From a virus (taxonomy: Duplodnaviria > Heunggongvirae > Uroviricota > Caudoviricetes), in IMG/VR virus record IMGVR_UViG_2778261418_000011, positions 1-15,956 of that record: 15,956 bases of DNA. The stretch is one strand, 5' to 3'. The notes beneath the pieces were generated by a model. The model was given only the letters and a program-made list of their open reading frames with translations. It ran no database searches and had not been told where the DNA came from. The position numbers and the translations under genes are program-made. This document shows, one piece after another, positions 1 to 15,688 of the stretch. The stretch's first letter is position 1. The number at the start of each line of letters is the position of its first letter.

Positions 1-344
1 GCATCCAGAAAACGGGCGTAAACCTTACGCCGGACCACCGTTCCGCCGACCAGACTCTGCAGATCTTCCGCCATCCCTGTGACCATGCCGTGCATATTAG
101 AGACTTTCAGCGTTGGCCTTGCACTGGCTCCTTTGCCGTTCATCTCAAATCCACTTCCCTGAATGGGATAGGCCTGATACTGCCGCCCCTGCCAGGTGAC
201 TGCTTCACCTTTTTCGTTCTGCTCATTACAGAAGAAATAACGATCTCCGCCGACCTCTGTCAGATCAATTTCCCAGAGCACGACCAGCGCGGATTGCTCC
301 GTTTTAGTGCACTCATTGAGTGTTTCCTGCTGTATATCCTGCAT
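1..344 (-). CDS. L: Minor tail protein L, N-terminal ~114 aa (gene continues past the window start)
   Basis: My own minus-strand translation from the ATG at 344-342 reads MQDIQQETLNECTKTEQSALVVLWEIDLTEVGGDRYFFCNEQNEKGEAVTWQGRQYQAYPIQGSGFEMNGKG..., which matches the N-terminus of lambda gpL as I recall it. The ATG overlaps the M stop codon (ATGA). It is absent from the ORF track because it runs off the window. Confidence 0.8.
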   Translation of the reverse strand, partial: MQDIQQETLNECTKTEQSALVVLWEIDLTEVGGDRYFFCNEQNEKGEAVTWQGRQYQAYPIQGSGFEMNGKGASARPTLKVSNMHGMVTGMAEDLQSLVGGTVVRRKVYARFLD

Positions 345-685
345 CAGTGAGTGACCTCTTCAAAGGTACAGTTAAAATCGGTATACATGGCATTATCCGA
401 AATGCTCCACTCCCTGCAGACAACCCGGACAGTCCTGTTGTGTTTTGGCGGACGCCACAAAAAAGCACGAATCCCGGCATGACGGGATAAAAAACTGTCC
501 AGCGCGGCACGGGAATATTCATCTGTGACACGAAATACCGGTTTAAACGTTTTCAGATCCGCATTCAGACCACCAGCCCGTCGCTGTTCATATCCGTCAC
601 CAAACTTTACCGTAATAACTGATGGCTTTCGTGTCGTCTCCATCCCCTCACGGGGGATCCAGTTAAAAACTTCAGGCTCAGGCAC
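344..685 (-). CDS. M: Minor tail protein M
   Basis: Track ORF 344..730 contains ...KPSVITVKFGDGYEQRRAGGLNADLKTFKPVF...FLWRPP..., matching lambda gpM (FGDGY, GLNANLKT, FLWTPP as recalled). The likely start is the GTG at 685-683, which sits 7 nt after a GGAGG and gives 113 aa; the ATG at 700 is an alternative. It overlaps the tape measure stop. Confidence 0.8.
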   Translation of the reverse strand: MPEPEVFNWIPREGMETTRKPSVITVKFGDGYEQRRAGGLNADLKTFKPVFRVTDEYSRAALDSFLSRHAGIRAFLWRPPKHNRTVRVVCREWSISDNAMYTDFNCTFEEVTH

Positions 686-3600
686 TGTATAATCCTCCAT
701 CCCGACGCGATGACTGCATAATTGACACAACCCTGCTGTCGATCAGATCCACCAGTCCCCTGGCTGAGCGCGCATCTATCTCGCCATTGCTCCCTTGATT
801 CTGAATGCTGATGTGATACACGGGAGAATAAACAAATCCACCGCCACCATTCACATTGCCAATGGCTCTGACCCCAAGAGAGCCGTCCGCTGCCCGTGTC
901 AGTGGCATGATAGCTTCAGGCCCGGCCTCGCCCATCAGCCCGGCACCTTTCGCAAAAGCAAAATACGTCGGTGTATCCACAATAGTGTTACTGTAAGCAC
1001 TCAGATTTGCCGATGTGTAAACACCACCTTTTGCGTTTGCCACCGCCCCCGAAATCCATCCGCCGACCGTACCAAGCCACCCTCCGGCACCGGAGAGTGA
1101 CTTCAGTCCGTTAACAATGGCCGCATTCATCAGAATTTTTGAAACTTCCCGGAGAACTGAACTCCCCCAGTTCCTCCACTCCACAACATTCCCGGCCAGT
1201 GCATCGGAAATATTTGATACCAACCCGTCCATCGTGGAAACGACAGCATCTGCCGCCTGTGAAGCATAATCGGTGGCACTGTCTGCCCAGTTGGTCAGTC
1301 CCTCCTGGAGTCCGGCATTCCAGTTATTACGTAAAGCATCGGCCTTTGCATAATAATCCTGCTGATCGCTGAGACGCTCTTCCAGATATTTTTTATTCAG
1401 TTCTTTCTCCTGTTTCCACAGGGCTTCTTCAATTTCTCCGGCCTGATACTGTCTCAGCAGCTCGTTATTTTTCTTCTCAAACGTCTGCCGGATACTCCAC
1501 ATTTCCTGGAGTCGTTCACGCATCCGTGAGCCTTCACCATATCCCAGCAACTGCGCTTCGTCAGATGCCCGGGCACTGGCATTACTGTCCGCCAGACTGC
1601 TCTCATACGCAGCAAGCTGCTCACGAATCTTTTTCTGGTCGATGAGTGCTGCATTCTGCAAAAGCGTTTTTTTCTGCGCTTCTGACAGGGTTGATAATTC
1701 GCCCTGACTGACCTGATATTTCATCTTAGCCAGTTCAGTATTCTGCCCTGCCAGTGCTATCTGTTCTTTTTGCTGTTTAATCAGCCGTTTATAAATATCT
1801 TCTGTTTTTTCCGCTTCGGTCTTTTTATGCGCTTTTGGTTTATTTGCCTGGTTATTTCGCCAGGCATCCAGTGAGTTATTGATATAATTCTGTCTGGCTG
1901 TCTGATACGCCTCTCCCACAAAGCCGAGATCATCCGCAGCATAACCCAGGCGGGCACGCTCACGGGCTTCCCCCTTCAGGCGGGACAGAGCCAGTTCGCG
2001 CTCGCTGTTATTCAGTGCGGTCTGCTGTTTATCATCCAGGGTTGCCTGTGGTAGCCGTAACGGTACATTCACCAGCCCCTGTCGCTGCTGAAGTAATTCA
2101 TTACCGAGCCCGAGAAGGCGATTAAACTCGGTATGCTGCCCATTCATGATCAACAGGGACTGATACGCTTTGTTTTGTTCCGCCGCCTGTTGACGGATCA
2201 ACGCCACCCGTCGTTCTTCCAGCCCGGCAAGCACATCCTGAATGGATTGCGCTTTGCCCTGCATTTGAGTGAGGCGAGACTGTTCAACTGCCAGTTGATT
2301 TGTTGCTTCTGCAAGCCCTTCTGTGACAGTTTTTACCGACGTCATGTGGTTAATCATAAAACCGTTATCGGTTGTCCAGCCCGGGTTTGCCAGCACATAC
2401 TGATAGCCAGCAATTTTTTCCTGTAAGGATTTAATCTTACTTTTCTGCTCGTCAATTAACCTGTTCTGCTCCTTCAGTGCCTGTCGCGTCTTTTCCTCAT
2501 TATCTGACGCTTCAGGAAGCGACATTGCCGACGTTTTCTGGCGAATTTCGTCGATTGTTGCGGCATACTGGCGTGCAGATTCTCTGGCCTGCTCCTGATT
2601 CTGATACATCATGTACCAGGCCGCAGCCCCCAGCATGACGAGTCCCGGCACACCACCAACCAGCCCCAGCGCGCCACTTAATAAACGACTCCCCACTGAC
2701 GTAACATTATTCAGCGTTGTCTGTGCCGCTGTTCTGGCCGCAATATTACGGGTAAGTGATGCCTGGGCAGCTGTCAGCTTCGCTTCTGCTGCGGCCTGCC
2801 TTTCGGTACCGCGAGCAGCAACAACCGCCTGTTGCGCACGATAAACCGCCGCACGCGCCCTGGCAGTTGCTATCTGTGTCCCCCGAAGTTGCGCTTCAGC
2901 AAGAGACACTTCGTTTCTGGCCGCAGTGATTAGCCCGGCAGTTGCAGAGCCAGCAGAAGATGCCATATTGCCAAAATATCGGGCTACCCCGACGGCAACC
3001 AGTGCACCGGCAGCGGTTGCCACGGTGTCAATATTGCCTGCAATACTATTCAGCACACCGGAGAGCGTCTTCGTCACTCCGCTTGCCTCGTTCGCACCAC
3101 CAACCCAGGCCATAAAGGCGTTTTCAACTTTGGTTGCAGAGGATGAAACCGTATCAGGCATTGCCGCATATTCATCACGTAATGCCCCAAGCTGACTAAT
3201 CAGTGCAGGAACAACCTTATCGGCGGTCAGTTTTCCGTTATCCGCCATGGCCTTCAGATCCTTACGGGCAACTCCCATTCCCGCAGCCAGCGCACGAATA
3301 ACACGATCGCCGTTCTCATTCACCGAGTTAAACTCTTCACCGCGCAGCACTCCCTGCGCCAGTGCCTGACTGAACTGCGTGATCACCGAACTGGCTTCTG
3401 CTGTACTGGCACCGGATAATTTCAGGCCCGTGGAGATCGCCTCAGTGACTTTCAGTACTTCCTCAGAACTGTAGCCATACTCCCGCATGGAAGCTGCAGA
3501 GCGGGCAAAAAGGCTGGCGTTATCAGAAAAAGCCGTCCCCGTTCTCTGGCTGATTGCCATTAATTCGCGTTGTGATGCCTGAAAATCATCACTGGACTGT

Positions 3601-3911
3601 GAGGCCTGCTTCAGACGGGCATTGACTGAATTCCACTCATCGGCGAGAGAAATAAGATGACCGGTAGCAAAAGCCCCGGCAAATGCCCCCGCCATGTTCA
3701 GTGCCGAAGATTTAGCTGTATTTATCTGATCCGTCACTTCTGCCAGTGCACGCCGCATTTCACGGGATGCAGCAGCGGACTGTCGGCTTCCATTCTGCAT
3801 GGTGCGGTAGTAATCCTGCCCCATACGCGAAGCCCGGGAGATCTCTGACTGAAATGACCGGGAGTTTGCCGAAATTTTAATAATCAGTTCACGTAATGTC
3901 GCCACACTCAT
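678..3911 (-). CDS. H: Tail tape measure protein (lambda gpH-like), 1077 aa
   Basis: Very long Ala/Gln/Glu-rich coiled-coil ORF with a central hydrophobic Gly/Ala segment and a C-terminus ending ...RRDGGLYSA, like lambda gpH (...RDGGLFS...). It lies between the G/T chaperone and M. The ATG at 3911 is only 1 nt from a GGAG; the GTG at 3905 has 7-nt spacing and may be the true start. Confidence 0.9.
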   Translation of the reverse strand: MSVATLRELIIKISANSRSFQSEISRASRMGQDYYRTMQNGSRQSAAASREMRRALAEVTDQINTAKSSALNMAGAFAGAFATGHLISLADEWNSVNARLKQASQSSDDFQASQRELMAISQRTGTAFSDNASLFARSAASMREYGYSSEEVLKVTEAISTGLKLSGASTAEASSVITQFSQALAQGVLRGEEFNSVNENGDRVIRALAAGMGVARKDLKAMADNGKLTADKVVPALISQLGALRDEYAAMPDTVSSSATKVENAFMAWVGGANEASGVTKTLSGVLNSIAGNIDTVATAAGALVAVGVARYFGNMASSAGSATAGLITAARNEVSLAEAQLRGTQIATARARAAVYRAQQAVVAARGTERQAAAEAKLTAAQASLTRNIAARTAAQTTLNNVTSVGSRLLSGALGLVGGVPGLVMLGAAAWYMMYQNQEQARESARQYAATIDEIRQKTSAMSLPEASDNEEKTRQALKEQNRLIDEQKSKIKSLQEKIAGYQYVLANPGWTTDNGFMINHMTSVKTVTEGLAEATNQLAVEQSRLTQMQGKAQSIQDVLAGLEERRVALIRQQAAEQNKAYQSLLIMNGQHTEFNRLLGLGNELLQQRQGLVNVPLRLPQATLDDKQQTALNNSERELALSRLKGEARERARLGYAADDLGFVGEAYQTARQNYINNSLDAWRNNQANKPKAHKKTEAEKTEDIYKRLIKQQKEQIALAGQNTELAKMKYQVSQGELSTLSEAQKKTLLQNAALIDQKKIREQLAAYESSLADSNASARASDEAQLLGYGEGSRMRERLQEMWSIRQTFEKKNNELLRQYQAGEIEEALWKQEKELNKKYLEERLSDQQDYYAKADALRNNWNAGLQEGLTNWADSATDYASQAADAVVSTMDGLVSNISDALAGNVVEWRNWGSSVLREVSKILMNAAIVNGLKSLSGAGGWLGTVGGWISGAVANAKGGVYTSANLSAYSNTIVDTPTYFAFAKGAGLMGEAGPEAIMPLTRAADGSLGVRAIGNVNGGGGFVYSPVYHISIQNQGSNGEIDARSARGLVDLIDSRVVSIMQSSRRDGGLYSA

Positions 3912-3921
3912 TCTCCGGACG

Positions 3922-3943
3922 AAAAAAAACCGCCGAAGCGGTT
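3922..3943 (-). terminator. Putative intrinsic terminator/attenuator between T and the tape measure gene
   Basis: Minus strand reads AACCGC-UUCG-GCGGUU followed by a U-run (plus-strand A8 at 3922-3929): a 6-bp stem with a UUCG tetraloop and U-tract, immediately upstream of the tape measure RBS. Confidence 0.35.
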
Positions 3944-3951
3944 ATGTTGAC

Positions 3952-4242
3952 TCACTGAGACACGGTTAAAAGCGCGTTTTCCAGCCCGGCAAATGGATCT
4001 GAGGCGCCTTCTGTCTGCTCCTGCTCCCACTGAAGAAGCACATCATTCAGTGGTACTTTAACCCCCTGCGCACCGTAAACAGCTGAAACAATCTGGGCAG
4101 CCCGGATATCAGCCCGTTCGTCCCCCAGCGGGCTGAACCTGTCAAATTCTGCCCACATCATGATTTCTGATGCGGACATTTCCCGGCGTAACTCTGACAA
4201 TGTGCGCCCCATCCTGAGCGCCAGCATCATCAGAAAACGCAT
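3952..4242 (-). CDS. T: Tail assembly protein T frame (C-terminal part of the G-T fusion made by a -1 frameshift)
   Basis: 96-aa ORF in the -1 frame relative to G, starting 12 nt after the G stop. This is the position and arrangement of lambda T; the slippery site is described below. Confidence 0.75.
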   Translation of the reverse strand: MRFLMMLALRMGRTLSELRREMSASEIMMWAEFDRFSPLGDERADIRAAQIVSAVYGAQGVKVPLNDVLLQWEQEQTEGASDPFAGLENALLTVSQ

Positions 4243-4253
4243 CCCCGGAAGTG

Positions 4254-4640
4254 CTACTTTTTTTTAACCTCTCCGGCATCACTGATCAGTTCCAGAGACT
4301 GGCGAAGAAGCCGGGCATGCACCGGGCCATACACGGCAATCACCTGTTCACGATCATCCTCTGAAAATACGGGTTGCAGCCCGGTATCACACAGAACATC
4401 AATGAACAGTTCAACGTCTGCCTCCAGATTTCGGCGGGCACGCTCTGCAACAGATGGCGATGTATCATCTTCCCTGGCTTTAACGATCTCCTGCCAGCGC
4501 AACCAGGCTTCTGCAGAAGGTTCCCGTAACACAACCGTTGCTCCTTCCCATTCAGGCACATCAACGGTTTTATGGCGAAACCCCGACATCGTTGCCAGTG
4601 CCAGATTACGGATATTTTTAGTCATCACATCCATCCTCAT
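4254..4640 (-). CDS. G: Tail assembly chaperone G
   Basis: Acidic ~125-aa ORF directly upstream of the tape measure and downstream of the major tail gene, ending ...GEVKKK on a slippery A-run. The TAATG overlap with the V stop supports the 4640 start; the ATG at 4625 has a better SD (GAGGA, 8-nt spacing). Confidence 0.8.
   Translation of the reverse strand: MRMDVMTKNIRNLALATMSGFRHKTVDVPEWEGATVVLREPSAEAWLRWQEIVKAREDDTSPSVAERARRNLEADVELFIDVLCDTGLQPVFSEDDREQVIAVYGPVHARLLRQSLELISDAGEVKKK
4257..4263 (-). other. Programmed -1 ribosomal frameshift site (slippery heptamer A AAA AAG)
   Basis: Minus-strand mRNA reads GTT AAA AAA AAG TAG. The heptamer A_AAA_AAG is in the zero frame at the last three codons of G, and a -1 slip continues as GTA GCA CTT CCG GGG ATG CGT..., which is the T frame. 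Confidence 0.75.
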
Positions 4641-5344
4641 TAACTGACGGTTACAGTGCAGGAAGTGGAGGTCACTTTGTTAACCGGGCTTGCTGAATCA
4701 GAAATCTCGCAGGTATACGCACCGGCATCACCGGATGCTGCTGATGCCTTACTGAACGTTGCCGCCGTCTGTCCGGAAACAGGAGAACCACCTTTCTTCC
4801 AGACATAAGAATAAGGCGGCACACCACCGGCAGCCTCAACCACCATTTCGAGTTTCGCTCCGGCAGAAACCTGCAGCGTGCTGTTTAAATCGACCTTCAC
4901 TTTCAGCGGTTCTGTCGTCAGCACAGGTTTACCTTTCAGGCGCAGGGAAAACGTTGCAGCCACAACACCATTGGTTCCTGCAGACCAGGTATGCTGACGC
5001 ACCTCTGCCATAAAGGTAAATCCGTTTCCTGACGGAAAAATAACTTTAAAGCCATACGTGGTGTCATTGTCATAGGCACTGCGCAACGCATTCTGGGCAG
5101 CATTGAGGTAAAAGTTGCCTGACATGGAAATCTCTGACGCGGCACCAAGACCGTTAATATTTTCCTGCTCAACAGAACACAGCGTGGTGACATCAATATC
5201 CTGCTTTTGTCCTGCGGTAAACTGCACCTCTTTGATTGTACAGCTCAGGCCAAGATAGCTGGCAGAATCCAGGGTTTCTGCTGTTACCGGTGCAGACGAA
5301 ATCATAATTTTCGTCAGTTGCGAACGCTCAAAATTAGAGGACAT
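4640..5344 (-). CDS. V: Major tail protein (lambda gpV-like) with C-terminal Ig-like domain
   Basis: 234-aa ORF in the V position. The C-terminal ~90 aa (..LKVKVDLNSTLQVSAGAKLEMVVEAAGGVPPYSYVWKKGG...YTCEISDSA...) looks like a bacterial Ig-like fold. RBS GGAG is 6 nt upstream of the ATG. Confidence 0.85.
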   Translation of the reverse strand: MSSNFERSQLTKIMISSAPVTAETLDSASYLGLSCTIKEVQFTAGQKQDIDVTTLCSVEQENINGLGAASEISMSGNFYLNAAQNALRSAYDNDTTYGFKVIFPSGNGFTFMAEVRQHTWSAGTNGVVAATFSLRLKGKPVLTTEPLKVKVDLNSTLQVSAGAKLEMVVEAAGGVPPYSYVWKKGGSPVSGQTAATFSKASAASGDAGAYTCEISDSASPVNKVTSTSCTVTVS

Positions 5345-5361
5345 ACTCGTCTCCTGAAAAT

Positions 5362-5382
5362 AAAAAAAACCGCCAGCGGCGG
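5362..5382 (-). terminator. Putative intrinsic terminator/attenuator upstream of the major tail gene
   Basis: Minus strand reads CCGCC-GCU-GGCGG followed by U8 (plus-strand A8 at 5362-5369), between the stop of the upstream gene (5405) and the V RBS. Confidence 0.35.
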
Positions 5383-5404
5383 GTGGGTAAAATCATTAAC
5401 GAAC

Positions 5405-5749
5405 TCAGGCTATTACCTGAAATTCAAGCGTGGCTCTGCTCAGACGGGATTCAGGATCATAACCCTGCGTTTTAGAAATAACGGAGGGTGCAAGTTCCCT
5501 CACCGCATCAAGCGCCTGTTCCCGGATATCATCTGCGTCATCAGGCACCGTTGCCCAGACATCGATCTGCACGGTAATTCTGGATTCAGCCTGACCATCA
5601 AGCACATCAGACGCCGTGTCAGACACCACAGAAAACACCAGCCACGGCGGAGATACCGCAGGTTTTCCCTCCGTCAGCGGGACCACATAAGGATAAACCT
5701 GTCCTCCGGCCAGTTGAGACAGCAGGGAATACAGTGTGGCTTCCCTCAT
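5405..5749 (-). CDS. Tail completion / tail terminator protein (lambda gpU position; family not recognised with certainty)
   Basis: 114-aa ORF between the gp10-like gene and the major tail gene, with an ATGA overlap to the upstream stop. Assignment rests on gene order; no obvious similarity to lambda U in my recollection. Confidence 0.55.
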   Translation of the reverse strand: MREATLYSLLSQLAGGQVYPYVVPLTEGKPAVSPPWLVFSVVSDTASDVLDGQAESRITVQIDVWATVPDDADDIREQALDAVRELAPSVISKTQGYDPESRLSRATLEFQVIA

Positions 5750-6195
5750 TTACTTAAGACCTCATCAATAGCCTGATTCATTCGCTGTATGGCAACCTGC
5801 GCCGCCAGCTCCTCTGTCGTATCGAAAGCCGGGCGAATGAATGGATGCGCGGGCATGTTTATCGTTCCCAGCTCCACAAAGCGCCAGTAAAACGCATTTC
5901 GGGGATCGCTGGCTTTCATGCTGTTATCACTGTTTCCGGTTCGCAGGTTCCGTCCGCGAATATGGATACCAGAAATAATTTCCCCCCGACGCTTTGAGCG
6001 CTGAGTCAGAACAACCACATTTTTCTTCAGTTTTCCGGTTCGCTCCGGCGCACGTTCAACAACCGCATCCCGCATAACTTCAGCACCGGCACGGGTGGCA
6101 TCGCGCAGCACCTTATTGTTTTCTGCCCTGCTGAGCGTCTCCAGATCCCGTGCAATATCCGCCAGACCTGAAAAATCAAGACTGAAATCCATCAC
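5746..6195 (-). CDS. HK97 gp10-family head-tail protein
   Basis: 149-aa ORF containing ...NMPAHPFIRPAFD..., which I recall as characteristic of the HK97 gp10 family. Sits in the head-tail joining block. Confidence 0.7.
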   Translation of the reverse strand: MMDFSLDFSGLADIARDLETLSRAENNKVLRDATRAGAEVMRDAVVERAPERTGKLKKNVVVLTQRSKRRGEIISGIHIRGRNLRTGNSDNSMKASDPRNAFYWRFVELGTINMPAHPFIRPAFDTTEELAAQVAIQRMNQAIDEVLSK

Positions 6196-6530
6196 ACATT
6201 CCCCTTCAGACTGCAGAGCATTTCAAGCCGGGTGGCGCGTGCATCCGGTATTGGTGGCCCTTCTATACCAAGAGTGACCCCTTTAAATGCACCGGTCAGC
6301 ACTTTCAGACGTGAAGTCGCTGTCACATCGCGCCGAAATCGCATCCAGACTCTGACCGTAGCCTGAGCGGTTTCTGCACCTCCTGATATTCTCTCCCTCC
6401 CGCTGATCCCCTTAACTTCTGCCCATACGGTTGCCCCCTCCGTCATTGTCTCCACCGGATGCCCTGACGGAGAACGGACGGTGGTGACATTCAGAATAGT
6501 TACGCGATCACGTAATCTGCCCGCCTGCAT
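6192..6530 (-). CDS. Head-tail adaptor / head closure protein
   Basis: 112-aa ORF downstream of the gp6-like connector, with a strong RBS (AGGAGG) 4-5 nt upstream of the ATG. Assignment by size and position in an HK97-type head module. Confidence 0.65.
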   Translation of the reverse strand: MQAGRLRDRVTILNVTTVRSPSGHPVETMTEGATVWAEVKGISGRERISGGAETAQATVRVWMRFRRDVTATSRLKVLTGAFKGVTLGIEGPPIPDARATRLEMLCSLKGNV

Positions 6531-6538
6531 GGTTCCTC

Positions 6539-6856
6539 CTACAAAGGAATAAAACGATAAGGCTCCAGCAGAGAAGAAAAACCAAACGGGACTGGTGCCT
6601 TGCTGACATCTGAGGAATTTTCCCGGTTTTCGTACCAGTGTCCGACCAGCAACATGAGCGCCAGCAAAACATCATCAGCTATAAGCACCCCGTCAGGATC
6701 ACCTTCCGGCACCGTCTCCTCATAAAGCTTACGGTTGATAAAATTTTCTGCCTTGCGGCAGGCAGCCCGGAAATACAGCATCAGTAACTCATCATCAGTT
6801 GCATCATCTGTATCAATACGGCACTGCGCCCTGAGTTTTTCCACTATTGCTGCCAT
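6539..6856 (-). CDS. Head-tail connector protein (gp6-like)
   Basis: Track ORF 6539..6901 would overlap the capsid stop. The ATG at 6856 (MAAIVEKLRAQ...) has AGGAG with 6-nt spacing and is the likely start. Acidic ~105-aa protein immediately after the capsid gene. Confidence 0.65.
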   Translation of the reverse strand: MAAIVEKLRAQCRIDTDDATDDELLMLYFRAACRKAENFINRKLYEETVPEGDPDGVLIADDVLLALMLLVGHWYENRENSSDVSKAPVPFGFSSLLEPYRFIPL

Positions 6857-6900
6857 CAGAAACTCCTGCCCGCAACACTGTGCGGGCATAAAAAACCGCA

Positions 6901-8127
6901 TTACGCAGCGGCTTTCTGGCGGGTTGCGGCCCCAATTTTCATCAGCTTAATCGCCTGAGAATCCACCAGCATACCGCCGGTTCGCTTGGTGGTGTAAAAA
7001 CCCACAAACGGTTTATTGGTGTACGGATCGCGCAGGATACGGGTACCGATGCGATCAACGATGGTATAGCCACGTTTGAAGTTACCAAACGCAATGGCTT
7101 TTGCATCGGCAGCAATATCCGGCATCTGTTCATTCTCAACGATGCCATACCCTGCCAGAGAAGAAGGCTGACCCAGCTCAATACCCGGACGCCACAGATA
7201 ATTTCCGTCGTTATCCTTCAGCAGACGAATGGCAAACAGGCTGCTGTTGTTCATCATAAACTTCGCGCCGCTGCGGTGCGCCTTGCGCAGGGTGTAAATC
7301 AGTTTAATGATCGCATCGGCAGTCACGCCGGAAGCCGCACCGGAAGCAATGTGCTGAAGTTTGCCAAACGCACGGGTCTTGTCATCTTCATCGGTGGACT
7401 CGTAAGCCAGAAAACCTTTTGGTTTTTTGCTGCCGTCGCCACTGGTAAAGGCAATTTCTTCCTGCTCGGCAAATTCCAGCGCCAGCTCACTGTTGATCCA
7501 GTCTTCCACATTGAAGAAAGCATCATCGAGCATTTTCTGGGTGGCCTGCGGGTTGCCGTAGATTTCCCCCATAAAGGGTTCAATCAGACCCAGTTTTGAG
7601 GTGGCGGTTTCCGGACGAGCATCCGTTTCCCCCACCCATCCGGACGTTGTGCCGCCCAGATTCACCAGTTTTTTATAATCCGAGCCACCGAGGGTGATCA
7701 CAGTGGCTTCCTGGCGCATCACCACCTCATCTTTCAGCAGCGTCAGGATGGTACGATCCAGTTCTTCCGGAATGGCATAACCACCATCTTCATCATTACC
7801 TACCTGAAGCGCCTTACGTTCAAGTTCACGCAGACCGTCTTCACGCCCCTTGCGCATAAATCCGATAAACGCTTCTTTGTGTTCACCGGCAACTTTATTT
7901 TGCGTGCCGCCTGCCGGACGCTTGATGTCTGCCAGCTCTTTTTCCAGGTCGCTTTTCAGGTTCTCCAGCTCGCTGATTTGCCCGTTCAGGCTTTCCACCT
8001 GTTCGGCCAGCTTGCCTTTTTCCTGTTCGATCGCGTCAATGCGCTTGTCGTTTTTTGCCTTAAAATCGTCAAACTTCTGCTGCAAATCCTGCGCGACCTG
8101 TTCAACGTCTTTAATATCAACAGCCAT
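6901..8127 (-). CDS. Major capsid protein, HK97 family, with N-terminal coiled-coil delta (scaffolding) domain
   Basis: 408-aa ORF whose N-terminal ~100 aa is a heptad-rich coiled coil (..QKFDDFKAKNDKRIDAIEQEKGKLAEQVESLNGQISELENLKSDLEKELADIK..) followed by a capsid body. It sits directly after a prohead protease with no separate scaffold gene, as in HK97. Confidence 0.9.
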   Translation of the reverse strand: MAVDIKDVEQVAQDLQQKFDDFKAKNDKRIDAIEQEKGKLAEQVESLNGQISELENLKSDLEKELADIKRPAGGTQNKVAGEHKEAFIGFMRKGREDGLRELERKALQVGNDEDGGYAIPEELDRTILTLLKDEVVMRQEATVITLGGSDYKKLVNLGGTTSGWVGETDARPETATSKLGLIEPFMGEIYGNPQATQKMLDDAFFNVEDWINSELALEFAEQEEIAFTSGDGSKKPKGFLAYESTDEDDKTRAFGKLQHIASGAASGVTADAIIKLIYTLRKAHRSGAKFMMNNSSLFAIRLLKDNDGNYLWRPGIELGQPSSLAGYGIVENEQMPDIAADAKAIAFGNFKRGYTIVDRIGTRILRDPYTNKPFVGFYTTKRTGGMLVDSQAIKLMKIGAATRQKAAA

Positions 8128-8140
8128 TATTTACTCCTGA

Positions 8141-8791
8141 TTAAAATTTAAGATTTTTCAGTGCATTCAGTGCGGCATCCACATCCTCAGCATCACGCAG
8201 GGATAAAGCGCCATATCCCCCGGCCATGAATGCTTTGGCCTGGGTTCGCGAGAGTCCAACATCGCGCAAGACCCGCTCAATAATTTTCTGATCAGGGATC
8301 TCCCCACGCGCCAGCGCATTTTTCACATCGCTGATGCGTGCTTCATCATTGGAAGGAAACGTCACCAGACTGACCTCCCACAGGTCGATCTCTTTCAGCA
8401 GGAATACCCCTTTTTCCCGGTCGTACTCCCAGTCTTTCAGGATGTAGCCAATAGAAAGGCCGGTTAAAGAACCGGCCTTCATATGGGCATGTGCACGTTT
8501 TGCCAGGGGATCATCATCAATGAGTAATCGTCCCCTGACATAAAGCCCGACATCATCTTCTTTCATTTCGGTGTACACACCGATGGGCTCATCCATGCGG
8601 TGCTGCCAGAGCAACGCAGGCAGCGCCTTTTTTTCGCTCCATTTCTGGAGTGTTGTGGTAAAGGCTCCGGGGACCACCACATCATCGTGGCTGTCCTTAA
8701 CACCAAAAACAGAACCGTAACCTTCAAATTCCCCGGAATCACTGACGGATTTCAGGTTCAGCGGTATATCAAGACGCTGTTTTGTCTGCAT
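8141..8791 (-). CDS. Prohead protease, HK97 family
   Basis: Track ORF 8141..8821 lies between portal and capsid. The likely start is the ATG at 8791 (MQTKQRL...), with GGAGAG 5 nt upstream; it overlaps the portal 3' end. Confidence 0.85.
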   Translation of the reverse strand: MQTKQRLDIPLNLKSVSDSGEFEGYGSVFGVKDSHDDVVVPGAFTTTLQKWSEKKALPALLWQHRMDEPIGVYTEMKEDDVGLYVRGRLLIDDDPLAKRAHAHMKAGSLTGLSIGYILKDWEYDREKGVFLLKEIDLWEVSLVTFPSNDEARISDVKNALARGEIPDQKIIERVLRDVGLSRTQAKAFMAGGYGALSLRDAEDVDAALNALKNLKF

Positions 8792-10010
8792 CTCCACTCT
8801 CCTTTTTCTTACCGTTGTCATCGCCAGCAGAGGGACTGGTGGTCATGTTCATCGGTGTCAGATACACATCACCGCCCGGTCGGGGATTCATATCTTCCAG
8901 ATCACGGCAGTCATTAGGGGAATAAATCCCCCAGTTGATCCCCGTGGCATACGCTTCAAAGCGGGATTTCATGTCGCCACGCAACAATGCTCCGGCATTA
9001 AACTTGGCGTAAAATTTTCCCTGCTTGCTCTCCCTGACCAGCCCTGTATTGATCCGCTGCTCAATACGGGTCAGATACGGCACAAGGGAATAGTTAATGA
9101 AACCAAGCCCCAGCTCTTCAATATTGTTGAAGGTGGCGCGATCGGTGTTCTGCACCATATGCAGCGGCACGCGGAACAGGCGACAGATTTCTTCCAGCTG
9201 AAACTTGCGGGTTTCCAGGAACTGGCTGTCCTCGGCATTCAGTGCCACCGTTTTCCAGTCCAGCCCCATTTCCAGAATCATCGGACGATGAGAGTTTCCC
9301 AGCCCGACATGCCGTTCCTCAAAATCCTTTTTGATACGCGCATAAGCCTGGTCAGAAAGTTGTTGATCCGTACGCAACACACCGGATGTTACCGCGCCAT
9401 TGCCAAACAATCTGGCACCATGCTCCTCGGTTGCCGCTGCCAGTGAAATGGCCTCGCGCGCATATGCAATGGGATTCAGACCGACAAGTCCATCCAGCGT
9501 CAGGGTACGCACATGCCAGATTTCATTCTGGGTCAGCACATCCACGGAACCATCCGGAAACGTCACCTGATAAACCGGCTGCCACTGGCTGTTCAGCTTC
9601 GGTTCCACACAGCCCGGATCTATCGGAAGAAGCTCCACCACTTCCCCCAGTGCCTTTACCTTGTAGGCGTAAAAATTACCCCGCAGACACAGGCAGACGA
9701 TAACCAGTTCCCAGAATTCCTGCGGCGTCATGTAGCCATTGGGTTTTGCCGAAATCAGCTTATGCAGCCGTTCATCCACCGCCCGTGTTTTAAGGGTGCC
9801 GCTGATTTTGTAGAGACTGCAGGGCAGCATACCAACAGACTCAGCCAGCACCCTGACGCAGGAATAGACCGCCGTCAGCCGCATGGCCCGCTGGCTGCTG
9901 ATCCGCTTTCCGGTATAGGTGTCGTATGACAACCCCAGCTCTTCCGCAAGCATCCCGGGCGTTGTGACGGGGGTGTTATTTTTGCGTTGAAAAAGCCCCT
10001 GGAAAAACAT
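8769..10010 (-). CDS. Portal protein, HK97 family
   Basis: 413-aa ORF directly downstream of large terminase and upstream of the protease, with an acidic C-terminus. RBS GGAGGTGA precedes the ATG. Confidence 0.9.
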   Translation of the reverse strand: MFFQGLFQRKNNTPVTTPGMLAEELGLSYDTYTGKRISSQRAMRLTAVYSCVRVLAESVGMLPCSLYKISGTLKTRAVDERLHKLISAKPNGYMTPQEFWELVIVCLCLRGNFYAYKVKALGEVVELLPIDPGCVEPKLNSQWQPVYQVTFPDGSVDVLTQNEIWHVRTLTLDGLVGLNPIAYAREAISLAAATEEHGARLFGNGAVTSGVLRTDQQLSDQAYARIKKDFEERHVGLGNSHRPMILEMGLDWKTVALNAEDSQFLETRKFQLEEICRLFRVPLHMVQNTDRATFNNIEELGLGFINYSLVPYLTRIEQRINTGLVRESKQGKFYAKFNAGALLRGDMKSRFEAYATGINWGIYSPNDCRDLEDMNPRPGGDVYLTPMNMTTSPSAGDDNGKKKESGDADKTAS

Positions 10011-10192
10011 TACTCACCTCCGGAGGCGACCCGGTGACCGCGATCGAGATAACGCGCAACCAGCCACGACCAGCACAGACACAGCGCCCCGACAACAACA
10101 AAACCTGCCGGGGGATAAATCAGCCAGGCGCCATACGCCAGCAAAAGCGCCCCCAGCACGCCCACCAGTGGCGTGAGAATTATCAGAAACAT
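10010..10192 (-). CDS. Small hypothetical membrane protein (60 aa, two predicted transmembrane helices)
   Basis: [63 protein letters not shown] fills the 193-bp gap between terminase and portal. GAGGG lies 5 nt upstream of its ATG, and its TAA overlaps the portal ATG (TAATG). Confidence 0.45.
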
Positions 10193-10203
10193 AATGCCCT
10201 CGG

Positions 10204-11961
10204 TTAAAGCGAGCGAATACCAACGCTGACCAGATGCTCAGACAGATCCGGCTCCGGTTCACCGCCATTGACCAGCATCCGGCTCATTGCTGTAAACATC
10301 GCAACAGGACCGTCGATTTTGGCTTCAGGCGTGGATTTGTTCGGGAAGATATTGTCGTTTTTGTCCGGTTTTACCGTAACGTTAGACATCATCCAGTTCA
10401 TGACCGGGTGATTGCTGTGGTGAAAACGCCCGGCATAGACCAGTGATTCCGTTTCCTTCATAGCCTCTGACAGATTGCGGACCGTCTGCGGAACTTCCAC
10501 CAGCGGTATCCCTTCTTCAGCCAGAGCCAGACTGAACTGCATTGCACTCCACGGGTCAAATCCCAGCTCCCTCAGGTTTTCACCACCAATCCATTCCAGT
10601 AAGTCACTTTTTATCTGAGCATGATCGATAACATCACCATCCGTCAGGATGAGCTTATCCATCTCCGCCCATTTCCGGTAAAGTTCTGCCTGCTGCCGCG
10701 AGCACCGCTCCAGCCGTCCTTCCGGGAGCCAGAATTTAAAATCAGCATGAACATGTCCGTTATCGGTTCGCCAGAGTTTTGCCGCCGCACAGATATCAAT
10801 CTTATGAGCAAGGTCGACGCCGACCCACATGGGATACGTTTTAAGCTCATGTCGTGGGGCAATATATTCGCATTTCTCCCACTTAATCATGTCCATCCAG
10901 GCAGACTCTGCTGTTACCCACACATTCATGTGTTTGGTAAAAAAATTCACCCGCGCAGAGACCTGTTCTTTCGCTTTTTTCGCCAGACGACGCAGATCAT
11001 CCCAGCGTTTACAGATGCCCAAGCCGGGATTCGCTTTCTGCCAGACCGTTTCATCAAACGGATCATCTCCCTCATCGAGCGTGTAAATAATCGCAAAGTA
11101 GGAATCATCTTTTACCGCGCCCTCCACGTCGCTGTTATAGCCTCGCAATACCTTGATGGCGTAATCGCGTTGCTCGTAACAAATCCCTTCCTTGTTAAAG
11201 CCCGCCGTGGTGATACCAAATAACAGGGACTGCAGACGGGCACCGGTTGCCGTTTCCAGAACGTCCCACACGTCGCGGGTTTTATGTGCATGCAGCTCAT
11301 CAATAATGGCGCAGTGGATGTTCAGACCGTCCAGGTTGTTTGCATCCGAGGAAAGCGGTTCAAATTTTGATGCGCTCTGCTCCTGGTAAATCGCCAGCTT
11401 GTTGAAATCAAACAATCGCCCGAGTGTCGACCGGGCTTTTCTGACCATATTTTTGGCGTCTTCAAACACAATTCTGGCCTGGTCACGCGTGGTTGCGGCT
11501 GAATACACCTCAGCACCGCCTTCACCATCTGCCCCCGTCATATACAGGCCGATACCCGATGACAGGGTTGATTTTGCGTTTTTACGGGCGACTTCGTTGT
11601 ACGCCGTACGGAACCGGCGCACCATCACCGGACGTCCGCTGCCATCGCTGCGCATGACAACTTCCCCGGTCTCTTCATTAACCAGCGGAATGACAAAACC
11701 AAAAATATTAATGAGGATAAATACATGCCAGTCCATCAGTTCAATGGGCTGGCCTGCCAGCGCCCCTTTTACATGGGGCACAAATTTGTAGAAATTCAGG
11801 ATGTGCTGCGCACGGGGTTCACTGAAATAAATCCCCCGCTCTTCGCCGTACTTCAGATCATCAAGAAAACGCTGGCAGGCCAGACGGACAAATTCGCCAG
11901 CGACAATTTCTCCTGCAACAACACGTTCGGCGTAGCGGATCCCGTCAGCCACTTTTGCCAT
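10204..11961 (-). CDS. Terminase large subunit
   Basis: 585-aa ORF in the canonical position between small terminase and portal, with an ATGA overlap to the small-subunit stop. Length and composition fit an ATPase-plus-nuclease large terminase. Confidence 0.9.
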
Positions 11962-12443
11962 CAGTCTCTCGCTTTTAAAAGTTCCGCCAGCGGATCAACA
12001 TCATCCGGTCCGGCGGTATTTACTTTCGCCCGGCTTGCCGGTGACATACCAAACTCTGCAAGCATCGCCCGGATCCGCTTCCAGGCATCCGCTTTCATCG
12101 CAGCAGCCGGGTGTGCCTTAATCAGCACATCACCGTTCTGCGTTTCCGTGCGGTAGGTATAACCCTCAACATCGAGTATTTCGCAGTGATGCCGGTATTC
12201 GGTGTAGGCTTCCACCAGCAACTCGAGTGCACGCGCATCAAGCTGAGAAATGATCCCTTCCGCATTCAGTTCTTCCGCCATTCGCCTGAACCAGTACTTC
12301 CCCTGCGCCCCTAAATGTTGCGGAATTTTAGGGAGACCTTTTTCGTCCTTTTTAGCGGTTTTTTTGGGGTCTTTAACGGGGCGCTTTGATGGGTTGCCTC
12401 GTATCAAATGCAGGCGTGGCGGGGTTTTCGGGGGTCCTGACAT
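11961..12443 (-). CDS. Terminase small subunit
   Basis: 160-aa ORF with a basic N-terminus (..KTPPRLHLIRGNPSKRPVKDPKKTAKKDEKG..) immediately upstream of and overlapping the large terminase. Resembles the P27-type small terminase as I recall it. Confidence 0.75.
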   Translation of the reverse strand: MSGPPKTPPRLHLIRGNPSKRPVKDPKKTAKKDEKGLPKIPQHLGAQGKYWFRRMAEELNAEGIISQLDARALELLVEAYTEYRHHCEILDVEGYTYRTETQNGDVLIKAHPAAAMKADAWKRIRAMLAEFGMSPASRAKVNTAGPDDVDPLAELLKARD

Positions 12444-12590
12444 AATCGGTTTTACCTATCAATCGTTTAATCGCATTCCCAAAAAAAAGTTTTCGAACCT
12501 GCGGCGATGCGAGGAAAGGTCAGGCGGCGGTACTGAGCAGCCAGGGCTGCAGGGATTTTACCCGCCCCTCCCCACAAGTGAGAATAATTA

Positions 12591-12941
12591 TCACCTGATT
12601 CGTTCGCGCGCTGTTTTTGCTTTGTGGCAGGGCCAGCACAGACTCTGCAGGTTGCTGTCTGCATCTGTTCCGCCATGTGCTTTCGGGATGATGTGGTCGA
12701 CAGTTTTCGCCTCGCGCACCACACCGACACGCAGACACAACTGACACAGACCTTTATCGCGCTTCAGAATACGGGCTCGAATCACCGTCCATTTTGAGCC
12801 ATAGCCACGCTGGTGGCGGCTCAGTCCGCGCTGGTGCTGCACCCAGCCTTCACCCCGATGTTTATCGCAGTAGCCAGAGCTGTCTGTTGTTGTGCCTGCG
12901 CAACCTCGCTTACGGCATGCGCGGGGGATTCGTGATGGCAT
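12591..12941 (-). CDS. HNH endonuclease (phage packaging-associated)
   Basis: C-terminal motif ...VDHIIPKAHGGTDADSNLQSLCWPCHKAKT plus an N-terminal Cys cluster. The likely start is the ATG at 12941 (MPSRIP...), with AGGAG at 6-nt spacing. Sits upstream of the terminase genes as in HK97-like phages. Confidence 0.85.
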   Translation of the reverse strand: MPSRIPRACRKRGCAGTTTDSSGYCDKHRGEGWVQHQRGLSRHQRGYGSKWTVIRARILKRDKGLCQLCLRVGVVREAKTVDHIIPKAHGGTDADSNLQSLCWPCHKAKTARERIR

Positions 12942-13023
12942 TGGAATCTCCTTAATACCGGCATTATCGCAGCCCCTCACTGAAGGGCTGCTGTAATGCC
13001 TGTTACTCAGTAACAACTGCGCC

Positions 13024-13299
13024 TTACGGTAATTTCATGAAGGCAAATACCGGACAGCCCGGATGACGAGCATCTTCTGTTGCTTCCAGCATTGATTCAC
13101 CAAACCACTCCGTCGTGGCACGACCATCAGCAGCTTTGTAGTGGAGCAAGTACTGGTTTTCGCCATCCGCATACTGAGCGCGAGCTTTAACCTCACCCCA
13201 TTCATCACTGATGCGTACTTCCACCAGTTGTGACAGTTCAAACTTAAACGGAATAGACGCGACACCAACTAAAATCGGTTTATTTTCTGTTTTTTCCAT
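13024..13299 (-). CDS. Hypothetical protein (~92 aa), function unknown
   Basis: Track ORF 13024..13350. The only SD (AGGAG) precedes the ATG ATG pair at 13302/13299, so the true product is probably MEKTENKPILVGVASIPFKFELSQLVEVRISDEWGEVKARAQYADGENQYLLHYKAADGRATTEWFGESMLEATEDARHPGCPVFAFMKLP. No family recognised. Confidence 0.5.
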   Translation of the reverse strand: MEKTENKPILVGVASIPFKFELSQLVEVRISDEWGEVKARAQYADGENQYLLHYKAADGRATTEWFGESMLEATEDARHPGCPVFAFMKLP

Positions 13300-13473
13300 C
13301 ATCGTCTCCTGATATCGAAGCCCGTCGCCGCACCGGGCGCTGATCAACATTTGAGTATTCGCGGCGAAAGAAAGAATTTATTTTATTGAATGACCGCAAA
13401 CACAGAATTTCATGCTTTCCGGGCGCTGACGCATCCTTCATTTTTCAGCAAAATATTCTGCTCTTACGGGCGA

Positions 13474-13656
13474 TCAGTTCTGCAGACACTGCCGAACACC
13501 GTCAACAATTTCGCAGACCTGAGAAGCCGTATCGAAAAGCTGGCGCGCCTTATCCAGGCTGACGCATCCCACCAATAAAAAAGGCACCAGTATCGCTACC
13601 AGTGCCCATTTCGCCGCCGTTCGCGGCATTCTGTGTGTCCAGTGTTTTCGCGCCAT
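13474..13656 (-). CDS. Small putative lipoprotein (60 aa; lipobox LVGC, ~30-aa mature peptide with 3 Cys)
   Basis: MARKHWTHRMPRTAAKWALVAILVPFLLVGCVSLDKARQLFDTASQVCEIVDGVRQCLQN has a basic n-region, a hydrophobic h-region and an L-V-G-C lipobox. Its start lies 1 nt after the stop of the upstream 37-aa ORF. Confidence 0.45.
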   Translation of the reverse strand: MARKHWTHRMPRTAAKWALVAILVPFLLVGCVSLDKARQLFDTASQVCEIVDGVRQCLQN

Positions 13657-13657
13657 A

Positions 13658-13771
13658 TCACCACCAACGCACAGCCCAAATCAGAACAGCGACCGCCACA
13701 AGGCGAATTGCAAAGGCCGCAGCCCTTGTCAAATCAAGGCTCGCGGGAGTTTCCATTTCAATACCTTTCAT
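13658..13771 (-). CDS. Small hydrophobic peptide (37 aa, C-terminal transmembrane segment)
   Basis: My own translation of an ORF below the track's size cut-off: MKGIEMETPASLDLTRAAAFAIRLVAVAVLIWAVRWW. GAGG lies 9 nt upstream of the ATG. Positions checked codon by codon. Confidence 0.25.
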   Translation of the reverse strand: MKGIEMETPASLDLTRAAAFAIRLVAVAVLIWAVRWW

Positions 13772-13863
13772 AATGGACAACCTCAAAAAGAATCTTTTAT
13801 ACTTTCCCACGAGGATTTTCTCCCTACTCACTAATCACAATTTCCCCTTTGACGTGAAAACTA

Positions 13864-13896
13864 AAAACCCCGGACTGTTCCCCCAGCCGGGGTTTT
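13864..13896. terminator. Bidirectional intrinsic terminator downstream of the endolysin
   Basis: Perfect 10-bp stem AAAACCCCGG / CCGGGGTTTT (13864-13873 and 13887-13896) with a 13-nt loop. A/T-rich flanks on both sides give a U-tract in either orientation. Begins 8 nt after the endolysin stop. Confidence 0.55.
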
Positions 13897-13903
13897 GTTT
13901 TAC

Positions 13904-14287
13904 TTATCGCTTCAGCTGAAAGTGAGGTCCGTCTTTCAGCGTTTTCCAGTCCCCGCCCCATTCGATAGCGATCCCCAGCTCTGCGGCAGCCTGCTTAAAT
14001 GCCTGTGCGATTTTCTCGTACAGAGGCCACTCCCATGACACCTGGCTGCCGATGTAGGCCACAACATCCACCGCATCACCGGTCAGGTGGCGGCTGTTCA
14101 TGGTCTGGCTTTTCCCTTCCGCAACCAGCTGTTTCTGGCGATACTTACTGCGCAGGCCTTCCGTAATACCGAAATCAACCTCCGTCAGCTCCAGCGCACG
14201 GCGAACTACAGCAACCAGCTGTGGTTTGACACCCTCCAGATTTTTTTCACTGCGACGGCTGAATCTGAATTTACCCGGCATATTCAC
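13904..14287 (-). CDS. Endolysin, peptidase M15 family (L-alanyl-D-glutamate peptidase type), no signal-anchor
   Basis: 127-aa ORF with the metal-ligand pattern ...SRHLTGDAVDV... and ...DGPHFQL, typical of M15 zinc peptidase endolysins as I recall. Hydrophilic N-terminus. ATGA overlap with the upstream holin-like gene. Confidence 0.8.
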   Translation of the reverse strand: MNMPGKFRFSRRSEKNLEGVKPQLVAVVRRALELTEVDFGITEGLRSKYRQKQLVAEGKSQTMNSRHLTGDAVDVVAYIGSQVSWEWPLYEKIAQAFKQAAAELGIAIEWGGDWKTLKDGPHFQLKR

Positions 14288-14559
14288 CTCAACAATGGAA
14301 AGATTTTTGTGACGTTCCCGCGTGCGCGTATCACCAGCACGCAGAACAGCAGGTTAAAAAACACTTCCAGCCAGCCCGTTGCTAACGGGCGACCACACAG
14401 ATAGCTGAGGGGCGCAAAGGCATACAGCAGCATCAGCAGCCAGGCCAGCCATGACATCAGCGGTTTATGTCTGGAATCACGGCGACGATAAAAAAAGAGC
14501 GTCAGCACGATAACCGTGCATAACGCCACATTCAGCAATCCGGGAAGGTTACTTAACAT
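14284..14559 (-). CDS. Holin-like membrane protein B (91 aa, about three transmembrane helices); possible holin or antiholin
   Basis: Track ORF 14284..14613. The likely start is the ATG at 14559 (MLSNLPGLLNVALCTVIVLTLFFY...), with GGAGGAGG at 5-nt spacing. It lies directly upstream of the endolysin. Confidence 0.55.
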   Translation of the reverse strand: MLSNLPGLLNVALCTVIVLTLFFYRRRDSRHKPLMSWLAWLLMLLYAFAPLSYLCGRPLATGWLEVFFNLLFCVLVIRARGNVTKIFPLLR

Positions 14560-14941
14560 TGCCGCCTCCTCCACCCCGCAGGCGGGAAAACAGGACGGAC
14601 ACCAGCGATGCAATATCCTGTTGGTGGATAAACGACAGAATCTTTACCGACACCACCGATACCAGCACCGCACACAGTGCATCCGCCGATGTACCGTCAT
14701 AACCTGTTTTTGCTGCAATCCAGGCTGACAGCACGCGCGCTCCCAGCACGCCGACAATGAACGACACCAGAAAATGTGCCGCCACCCGCCAGGCTGAAAG
14801 CGCCTGCGGCATCGTTGCCACAAACAACGCTCCGGCGAACGCCCCAAACACAATCCCGAAATCCGTCCCGGTAAACAGTCCGAATACCGTCGCCCCGCCG
14901 AGCGCAGCGGCTGTACCAGAACCGGATAAGGGTTCAGACAT
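14549..14941 (-). CDS. Holin-like membrane protein A (130 aa, several Gly/Ala-rich transmembrane helices)
   Basis: First gene of the lysis cassette, with GGAG 8 nt upstream of the ATG. Its Gly-rich C-terminus (RLRGGGGGNVK) is encoded by the SD of the next gene. Confidence 0.6.
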   Translation of the reverse strand: MSEPLSGSGTAAALGGATVFGLFTGTDFGIVFGAFAGALFVATMPQALSAWRVAAHFLVSFIVGVLGARVLSAWIAAKTGYDGTSADALCAVLVSVVSVKILSFIHQQDIASLVSVLFSRLRGGGGGNVK

Positions 14942-15183
14942 ACTTTTTCTCCTGTAAAGAAAAAAGGGCCACCAGCAGCCCGCAAAAAAACGCCCACCAA
15001 AGGCACCCGCAGATGCCTTTGGTGTGGAGTTATTTGATGTGCGCCGGTCGTGGCGCGAGGAAGTGAAATAAGACTTACCTGAAATTAAGGTTAATCTTAT
15101 GGTTTAAACCATTTTTAATGCTTAGTAATATGAACTCGTCCCCAGAAGGGGCCAATACTTATTCTTCTTCACGGACTTTGTCC

Positions 15184-15215
15184 CGCGGCGTTAATCCGAC
15201 AGCCGCGCTTTTTTT
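15184..15215 (+). terminator. Plus-strand-oriented terminator-like hairpin
   Basis: CGCGGC (15184-15189), 12-nt loop, GCCGCG (15202-15207), then C and T7 (15209-15215). Confidence 0.4.
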
Positions 15216-15250
15216 GCGCCATATTCATCGCTGACTTATATGGCATTGCC

Positions 15251-15286
15251 ACACGGACATTATCAGTGTCCGTGTTTTCTTTTTTT
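15251..15286 (+). terminator. Plus-strand-oriented intrinsic terminator
   Basis: Perfect 9-bp stem ACACGGACA / TGTCCGTGT with a 7-nt loop, followed by TTTCTTTTTTT. Confidence 0.55.
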
Positions 15287-15297
15287 GAATTCAGAAT

Positions 15298-15324
15298 AAA
15301 AAAAACCGCCCAATGGAGGCGGTT
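15298..15324 (-). terminator. Minus-strand intrinsic terminator between the tRNA array and the lysis cassette
   Basis: Minus strand reads AACCGCC-UCCAUUG-GGCGGUU followed by U8 (plus-strand A8 at 15298-15305). Confidence 0.6.
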
Positions 15325-15688
15325 GGTCAATGCATGAGATCAATCATTTTTATTGTAATAGAAATCGAGGTGTCGGGTGCCTCCCGAAATATCCATCCCT
15401 ACAACAGATATTGTGATTCCCCGTTAAACCACTATATAAACCACCCTCGCACTGAGGAACACCTCTGCGGTGCTGTTTACAACACCAGAATGATGCTTCA
15501 CCGACCCTGCCAGGAAATACAAAATCTCCACCGATAATGCATCATTCTGCTGCCGTAAAAATTCAGCACTGAGGCTACACCCGACCTCAAATCATAGCCA
15601 GAGAACAGAATACCATTTAAACACAATCCGCTCCCACGTAATAAAAAATACGCCAGTGCTGTAATACAATAAGGCTTATTACAAATGT

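Follow-up and report, generated by a model that had tools for sequence, protein, structure and literature searches.

An HK97-type tail assembly chaperone pair in an E. coli prophage, with a probable programmed -1 frameshift on A_AAA_AAG

The window analysed here is a 15,956-nucleotide (nt) stretch of viral DNA (positions 1 to 15,956 of IMG/VR record IMGVR_UViG_2778261418_000011) in which every gene lies on the minus strand. At its tail assembly chaperone locus two genes, G and T, stand between those for the major tail protein and the tape measure protein; this order was obtained from the list of open reading frames (ORFs) and from Pfam, PHROG and PGAP assignments. Gene G (4254..4625, minus strand) encodes a tail assembly chaperone of 123 residues (MTKNIR...GEVKKK) that is 65% identical to gp13 of phage HK97 and matches PF06222 (Phage_TAC_1) along the entire profile (positions 1-124 of 124; 8.5e-58; 194.1 bits, with a cut-off of 25). 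Its reading frame is open upstream to an ATG at 4640 (ORF 4640..4254). The first-pass annotation gave the coordinates of this frame correctly and left its strand, the minus strand, unstated. The true start is most likely the ATG at 4625 rather than that at 4640, because GAGGA (4638-4634) lies 8 nt upstream of it, PGAP places the start there in the 100%-identical NZ_CP087564, and the Pfam and PHROG profiles begin there, the Pfam match opening at the MTKN residue.

The T segment lies in the -1 frame relative to G (3952..4257, minus strand). It comprises 101 codons (VALPGMRFLMMLALRMGRTLSEL...TVSQ), is closed by a TGA at 3954-3952, and matches PF06223 (Phage_tail_T) with 5.9e-20 when taken by itself and 1.6e-19 within the fusion (70.6-71.9 bits; cut-off 25.9). 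As had been described, T lies 12 nt downstream of G in this frame: the ATG at 4242, which annotators use as the start of T, is inside the -1 frame and begins 12 nt past the last base of the G stop codon.

The 3' end of G reads ...GGA GAG GTT AAA AAA AAG TAG. Its last two sense codons form, in phase, the slippery heptamer A_AAA_AAG (4257..4263, minus strand), the only in-phase heptamer within G; the earlier assertion that G ends on this heptamer at 4257-4263 thus holds, in the X_XXY_YYZ phase and on the minus strand. The proposed event at this site is a -1 tandem slip of tRNA-Lys. Directly 3' of the heptamer, the 0-frame stop TAG (4254..4256, minus strand) ends G and could serve as a slow-to-decode 'shifty stop' context. 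An A8 run (4258..4265, minus strand) encloses the heptamer and may act as a secondary slippage site for RNA polymerase, at which one added A would yield the identical fusion. In the -1 frame a TAA (4266-4264) immediately precedes the heptamer, which is thus the exact point where this frame opens; G and T overlap productively by only 10 nt. After a slip, the -1 frame would continue GTA GCA CTT CCG GGG ATG...

The predicted fusion, complement(join(3952..4257,4257..4625)) on the minus strand, is a coding sequence (CDS) for 123 + 101 = 224 residues with the junction ...GEVKKK/VALPGMRF...; its predicted junction peptide is ...VKKKVALPGMRF. That peptide is the same for ribosomal and for transcriptional slippage and discriminates neither. 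When this fusion was constructed and compared with Pfam, Phage_TAC_1 was matched first and Phage_tail_T after it. The same construct matched phrog_14766, a 224-position profile of a fused 'tail protein', over positions 1-221 (4.3e-93).

We assessed how readily such a site arises by chance. The string AAAAAAG is not rare, with 10 copies on both strands of the window versus 3.9 +/- 2.0 expected. In-phase X_XXY_YYZ heptamers are rare: 13 occur in the 3891 codons of the window genes, and two of these 13 are A_AAA_AAG. Only at the G site is the -1 continuation (101 codons) both long and endowed with a recognisable Pfam domain; on length alone, a T_TTA_AAA at the junction of the small and large terminase genes also qualifies. 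Because the 10-nt overlap leaves a single permissive codon position, the chance of finding an in-phase heptamer at the needed place is about 0.3%.

Conservation of the site was evaluated at two distances. Of 80 close viral relatives, 79 carry GTTAAAAAAAAG TAG unchanged, while nearby third codon positions vary; the A run is A8 in the same number and A7 in one. A distant set was collected by scanning species-representative genomes for related loci with seven enterobacterial sequences as alignment, and gave 73 loci, 70 of them intact. All 70 intact loci retain an in-phase A_AAG within the G/T overlap. The full motif is A_AAA_AAG at 45 of them, x_GCA_AAG at 10, G_GAA_AAG at 7, lambda's heptamer G_GGA_AAG at 5, A_GAA_AAG at 2 and G_GTA_AAG at 1. 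The first-pass annotation had noted that the window carries an A-run heptamer instead of the G GGA AAG of lambda; as a description of the sequence this is right, but as a departure it is not, since A_AAA_AAG is the family majority (45/70). A_AAA_AAG is the majority state of the HK97 gp13/gp14-type family, with the lambda heptamer alternating at the same position, and these counts illustrate that the conserved core of the signal is the A_AAG slip of tRNA-Lys. That a non-homopolymeric heptamer, G_GGA_AAG, takes the same place points to ribosomal rather than polymerase slippage.

Among the 45 species-level A_AAA_AAG loci, the A run is A7 in 34, A8 in 8, A6 in 2 and A9 in 1. The sole recurrent feature of the context is a 0-frame stop directly after the heptamer, present at 31 of the 45 (TAG 17, TAA 14). 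This recurrence may merely reflect the conserved T-frame valine codon GTA; equally, a stop in this position could favour P-site (peptidyl-site) slippage at a slowly decoded stop. Twelve named phage relatives gave a similar range of overlap sequences: A_AAA_AAG in Stx2 phage 1717, Morganella, Serratia, phi1026b and Bcep176, G_GGA_AAG in Salmonella SW-37 and mEp390, A_AAA_AAA/C in KS9 and Halomonas, G_GAA_AAG in HK97 and SaltyDalty, and GCA_AAG in Klebsiella. Two of these, the Burkholderia phages KS9 (A_AAA_AAA) and Bcep176 (A_AAA_AAG), are annotated with a joined -1 frameshift CDS.

The T-frame linker between the heptamer and the first methionine is also conserved, as KK-V-A-x-P-G/E-x-x-F-L-M. 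It persists in relatives such as Stx2 phage 1717, HK97 and KS9, which lack an ATG corresponding to 4242; this argues that ribosomes arriving from G translate it.

Three sets of relatives depart from the common arrangement. Klebsiella phage ST13-OXA48phi12.4 (L089, ~1190-1215) and about ten genome loci (e.g. L115, L117, L121, L132-L139) are without a perfect heptamer; they have GCA_AAG followed directly by TAA (...GCA AAG TAA AAA TG...), some with a T-frame ATG just downstream, and a shift there would depend on a single tRNA-Lys slip on A_AAG beside the stop. In L012 (IMGVR_UViG_2529292907_000015, 1501-1983), the close relative with A7, the frame relation is broken and G continues in the +1 frame. 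In ON470580.1 (L002, 1902-2229), T is annotated as two overlapping CDSs. The breaks in the last two could be homopolymer sequencing errors or real decay; at some level, the A7 of L012 shows that the run is length-unstable.

To place the locus among known systems, we compared it with HK97 (NC_002167), whose gp13 and gp14 likewise combine Phage_TAC_1 with Phage_tail_T, follow the same gene order and have T in the -1 frame. The gp14 record is a joined CDS 'translated due to a -1 frameshift', with the slip on A_AAG by tRNA-Lys, as is proposed for the window. The sites themselves differ: in HK97 an imperfect X_XXY_YYZ, G_GAA_AAG, stands 5 codons before the G stop within a 52-nt overlap, whereas the perfect A_AAA_AAG of the window abuts the stop. 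HK97 also has a moron, gp15, between T and H, which is missing from the window.

A second counterpart is the G/T pair of Stx2 phage 1717 and E. coli O157 prophages (G 67.7% identical), in which A_AAA_AAG is again followed directly by TAG and the T frame has K-V-A-x-P. This pair differs from the window in having an A run of 6 (AGA AAA AAG) rather than 8, and no T-frame ATG at the 4242 position. A junction of this sequence, AGA_AAA_AAG_TAG, was assayed by Antonov et al. 2013 as a representative of a 'Phage_TAC' cluster, and gave 7% frameshifting in E. coli (PMC3711429). We found that the insert given in their Table S2 is identical to the Stx2 phage 1717 G/T junction at 75/75 nt; that is, the 7% belongs to that junction and not to the window's own. 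Another member of the cluster, with G_GGA_AAG, gave 6% (PMC3711429).

The likeness to lambda consists in the position in the tail operon, the -1 frame relation, the T-domain family PF06223 and, close to where G ends, an in-phase heptamer whose last four bases are A_AAG. The lambda G/G-T system is reportedly the subject of work by Levin, Hendrix and Casjens (1993) and by Xu, Hendrix and Duda (2004, 2013, 2014). The differences are that the lambda heptamer is G_GGA_AAG, that lambda G runs 5 codons past it, and that lambda G belongs to Phage_TAC_2 (PF06894). The G protein of the window has no match to PF06894, which lambda G does hit, and matches only PF06222. Direct pairwise homology to lambda G and T was considered and rejected, because BLASTP of the window G and T against the two lambda proteins was not significant (E 0.2-5; G against G, E = 5.3); the link runs only through the shared Pfam T family. 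Lambda G, and likewise the G portion of the fusion, attaches to the tape measure protein, and T to the major tail protein; the G:G-T ratio is 30:1, and the fused G-T is the functional species (PMC5009743). The conclusion that the window locus is a member of the HK97 gp13/gp14 family working like lambda G/G-T is supported.

Two systems outside the tail genes use the same kind of site. The E. coli dnaX gene, which yields gamma and tau, has the same heptamer A_AAA_AAG, decoded by the single E. coli tRNA-Lys (PMC5009743). In dnaX, however, the heptamer follows a Shine-Dalgarno-like element at about 10 nt and is itself closely followed by a strong stem-loop; the shift is about 50% and gives a trans-frame product shorter than the in-frame one (PMC3711429). 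For the window, the search revealed no conserved stimulators, the expected efficiency is a few percent, and the trans-frame product would be longer than the in-frame one. Transposase orfA-orfAB pairs of the IS3 and IS1 insertion sequence (IS) families, in which A_AAA_AAG or A_AAA_AAA is dominant, resemble the window in that the -1 shift gives a longer fusion (PMC4066793). Their proteins are unrelated, and in IS elements the site is usually followed by a hairpin or pseudoknot, no conserved form of which was found in the window.

The search for stimulatory elements covered both sides of the heptamer. A dnaX-like Shine-Dalgarno stimulator about 10 nt upstream is not supported, the GGAGAGG of the window (4274-4268) being only 4-7 nt from the heptamer. 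In most close relatives this sequence is GGCGAGG or GGTGAGG. Among distant relatives a Shine-Dalgarno-like core within 16 nt upstream is present in only 22 of 45, a count confounded by codons for acidic residues. Downstream, there is no stable stem-loop within a few nucleotides; the nearest predicted hairpin starts 21 nt past the heptamer with z = -2.1 against shuffled sequences, and ten diverse relatives show no consensus downstream structure (-0.08 kcal/mol). Two candidates were set aside: this hairpin, as marginal against shuffles and not conserved in the ten relatives, and a hairpin enclosing the slip site (CCGGAG...CUUCCGG), because the ribosome would enclose its 5' arm while shifting and because substitutions in the upstream arm among close relatives are not compensated. 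With no conserved stimulators, the 'dnaX-type' label given to the site in the first-pass annotation fits the heptamer only; the Shine-Dalgarno-like element and the close stem-loop that the label would also imply were not found.

We consider it highly probable that the locus makes two products, G and G-T, from one translational start through a programmed -1 frameshift on A_AAA_AAG. Gene identity, synteny, the frame relation, the slip site and its conservation among relatives all support the earlier claim that the conserved G/G-T mechanism is present. Most ribosomes would translate G (123 residues) and terminate at the TAG. A small fraction, probably a few percent, would move back one nucleotide on A_AAA_AAG, with two tRNA-Lys re-pairing from AAA-AAG to AAA-AAA; alternatively, a P-site tRNA-Lys may slip on A_AAG while the TAG sits in the A site (the aminoacyl site). 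The shifted ribosomes would then read GTA GCA CTT... in the T frame and complete the 224-residue G-T. If lambda is a guide, the tape measure protein would be coated by G and by the G portion of G-T, and the T part would recruit the major tail protein. The slip efficiency would set a fixed and low G-T:G ratio; for a fusion made at such a ratio and needed for tail assembly the evidence is indirect, namely the 7% measured for the Stx2 phage 1717 junction and the 30:1 of lambda. A low frameshift efficiency of a few percent is expected, which suits a chaperone needed at a low ratio of G-T to G.

Several points weigh against this interpretation. The G-T protein of the window locus is a predicted product, and the identical or near-identical public records examined list G and T as separate CDSs, none with slippage. 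With the ATG at 4242 only 12 nt past the G stop, termination-reinitiation is conceivable from the sequence, and the A8 run could support transcriptional slippage leading to the same protein. The search for an upstream Shine-Dalgarno element or downstream structure found neither. Sharma et al. 2014 list A_AAA_AAG, G_GGA_AAG and C_CCA_AAG as the three heptamers of highest efficiency in E. coli, the efficiency being about 0.3% in the absence of stimulators and rising to about 3.7% at most where the 3' context is favourable; the heptamer alone could thus give as little as about 0.3% (PMC4066793).

The alternative that fares best is a variant in which two routes to G-T act together: -1 slippage of the ribosome, perhaps helped by the shifty stop, and insertion of one A by the polymerase. 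It is prompted by the invariant A8 that directly abuts the TAG in the E. coli lineage, compared with A7 in most relatives. We regard this combination as unlikely. If it were true, the G-T:G ratio would be higher, or differently regulated, than the ~3-7% of lambda and the Stx-phage relative.

More doubtful still is transcriptional slippage as the main route, in which the polymerase adds one A (giving A9) and the message reads GTT AAA AAA AAA GTA GCA..., with an identical G-T protein. The A8 of the window and of 79/80 close relatives speaks for it, as does the length instability seen in the A7 of L012. Runs of more than 7 A are cited as implicated in transcriptional realignment, and the trans-frame product climbs with run length, from 10% at A7 to 40% at A9 and 63% at A11 (PMC3711429). 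However, most distant relatives have A7 (34/45) or A6, five loci have G_GGA_AAG, and a further 20 have x_GAA_AAG, x_GCA_AAG or x_GTA_AAG, which are not homopolymers. The element kept in 70/70 loci is the phase-specific A_AAG, a translational feature, whereas a polymerase slip would need no in-phase heptamer. The tested Stx2 phage 1717 junction, moreover, has only A6 and still gave 7%. Some contribution of transcriptional slippage on the A8 run is possible, next to the preferred ribosomal frameshift.

That T is instead a separate protein, initiated or reinitiated at the ATG at 4242 or at conserved ATGs at 4227-4222, with an incidental heptamer, we judge very improbable. PGAP and phage annotators do call a 96-residue CDS here, the ATG at 4242 is just 12 nt from the G stop, and an in-phase A_AAA_AAG also occurs by chance in the protease gene (8633-8627). 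Yet no Shine-Dalgarno sequence stands at a usable distance before this ATG, which GGGG directly abuts. Nor is the ATG conserved (E-I in Stx2 phage 1717, G-V in HK97, no nearby methionine in KS9), while the T-frame residues that precede it are. In several lineages the heptamer is the exact point at which the -1 frame opens, and the constructed G-T fits phrog_14766, a profile of the full-length fused protein. Frameshifting has been measured for a relative (7%, Stx2 phage 1717), and the functional species in lambda is the fused G-T (PMC5009743). Decay of the prophage, with G and T as the halves of a gene broken by a homopolymer frameshift mutation and without programmed function, is barely credible: homopolymer runs are indel hotspots and further breaks exist in relatives (the A7 of L012, the split T of ON470580), but 70/73 species-level loci share the two-frame layout, as do viable phages (HK97, Stx phages), the late operon of the window is intact throughout, and the sequence is 95-100% conserved across about 900 E. 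coli genomes.

Two further in-phase heptamers of the window were inspected. The second A_AAA_AAG (8627-8633, minus strand) falls on codon 64 of the gene for the S78 prohead protease (8821..8141). Just 12 codons follow in the -1 frame, and the segment is poorly conserved. The small terminase gene has, four codons short of its stop, an in-phase T_TTA_AAA (11973-11979, minus strand). The large terminase ORF overlaps this gene by 1 nt (TGATG) and occupies its -1 frame, so that a slip would fuse TerS to TerL; the terminase junction of HK97 differs in being non-overlapping. As functional sites both were rejected, since neither is kept in HK97, and they probably arose by chance.

The neighbours of the pair conform to the same late operon. 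Upstream of G lies the major tail (tube) protein gene (4640..5344, minus strand; phrog_158, 7.8e-109; Pfam Ig_2 and Phage_TTP_11), with a C-terminal Ig-like domain. Downstream of T lies the tape measure protein gene (678..3911, minus strand; Pfam Phage_HK97_TLTM, 1.5e-93, TMP_3 and Tape_meas_lam_C; phrog_339). Its longest ORF starts at an ATG at 3911 that GGAGA (3916-3912) directly abuts; PGAP, in an identical genome, starts it at a GTG at 3905, which gives a normal Shine-Dalgarno spacing. The remaining genes of the window make up an HK97-like late operon, likewise intact, with holins, endolysin, small and large terminase, portal, S78 protease, capsid, connectors and tail.

Two terminator-like hairpins flank this part of the operon. 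The first, AACCGCTTCGGCGGTT followed by TTTTTT (3922..3943, minus strand), falls within the 46 nt that separate the T stop from the tape measure start; it is context, outside the frameshift signal. The second resembles an intrinsic terminator, CCGCCGCTGGCGG followed by the T run TTTTTTTT (5360-5382, minus strand), and lies just upstream of the major tail gene. Putative terminators are annotated in HK97 at positions equivalent to 3922-3943 and 5360-5382, one of them just upstream of gene H. One of the HK97 terminators follows the moron gp15, which the window prophage lacks. Both hairpins may tune tail-protein stoichiometry through partial termination.

Taken together, the locus is an ordinary, already known G/G-T tail chaperone pair of an HK97-like E. 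coli prophage. An 801-bp region covering it has 100% identity to two E. coli chromosomes; of 5426 complete E. coli genomes, 898 contain it with at least 80% coverage. Both the mechanism and the family, and this same heptamer within the family, have already been described and measured, and nothing here is new in principle; the only gap relevant to novelty is that the joined CDS is absent from public annotation. The main value of the finding therefore lies in annotation. RefSeq/PGAP and several phage records split the locus into a 'tail assembly chaperone' and a 'tail assembly protein T', and so omit the joined -1 CDS, complement(join(3952..4257,4257..4625)), from a prophage type carried by about 900 of the 5426 complete E. 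coli genomes.

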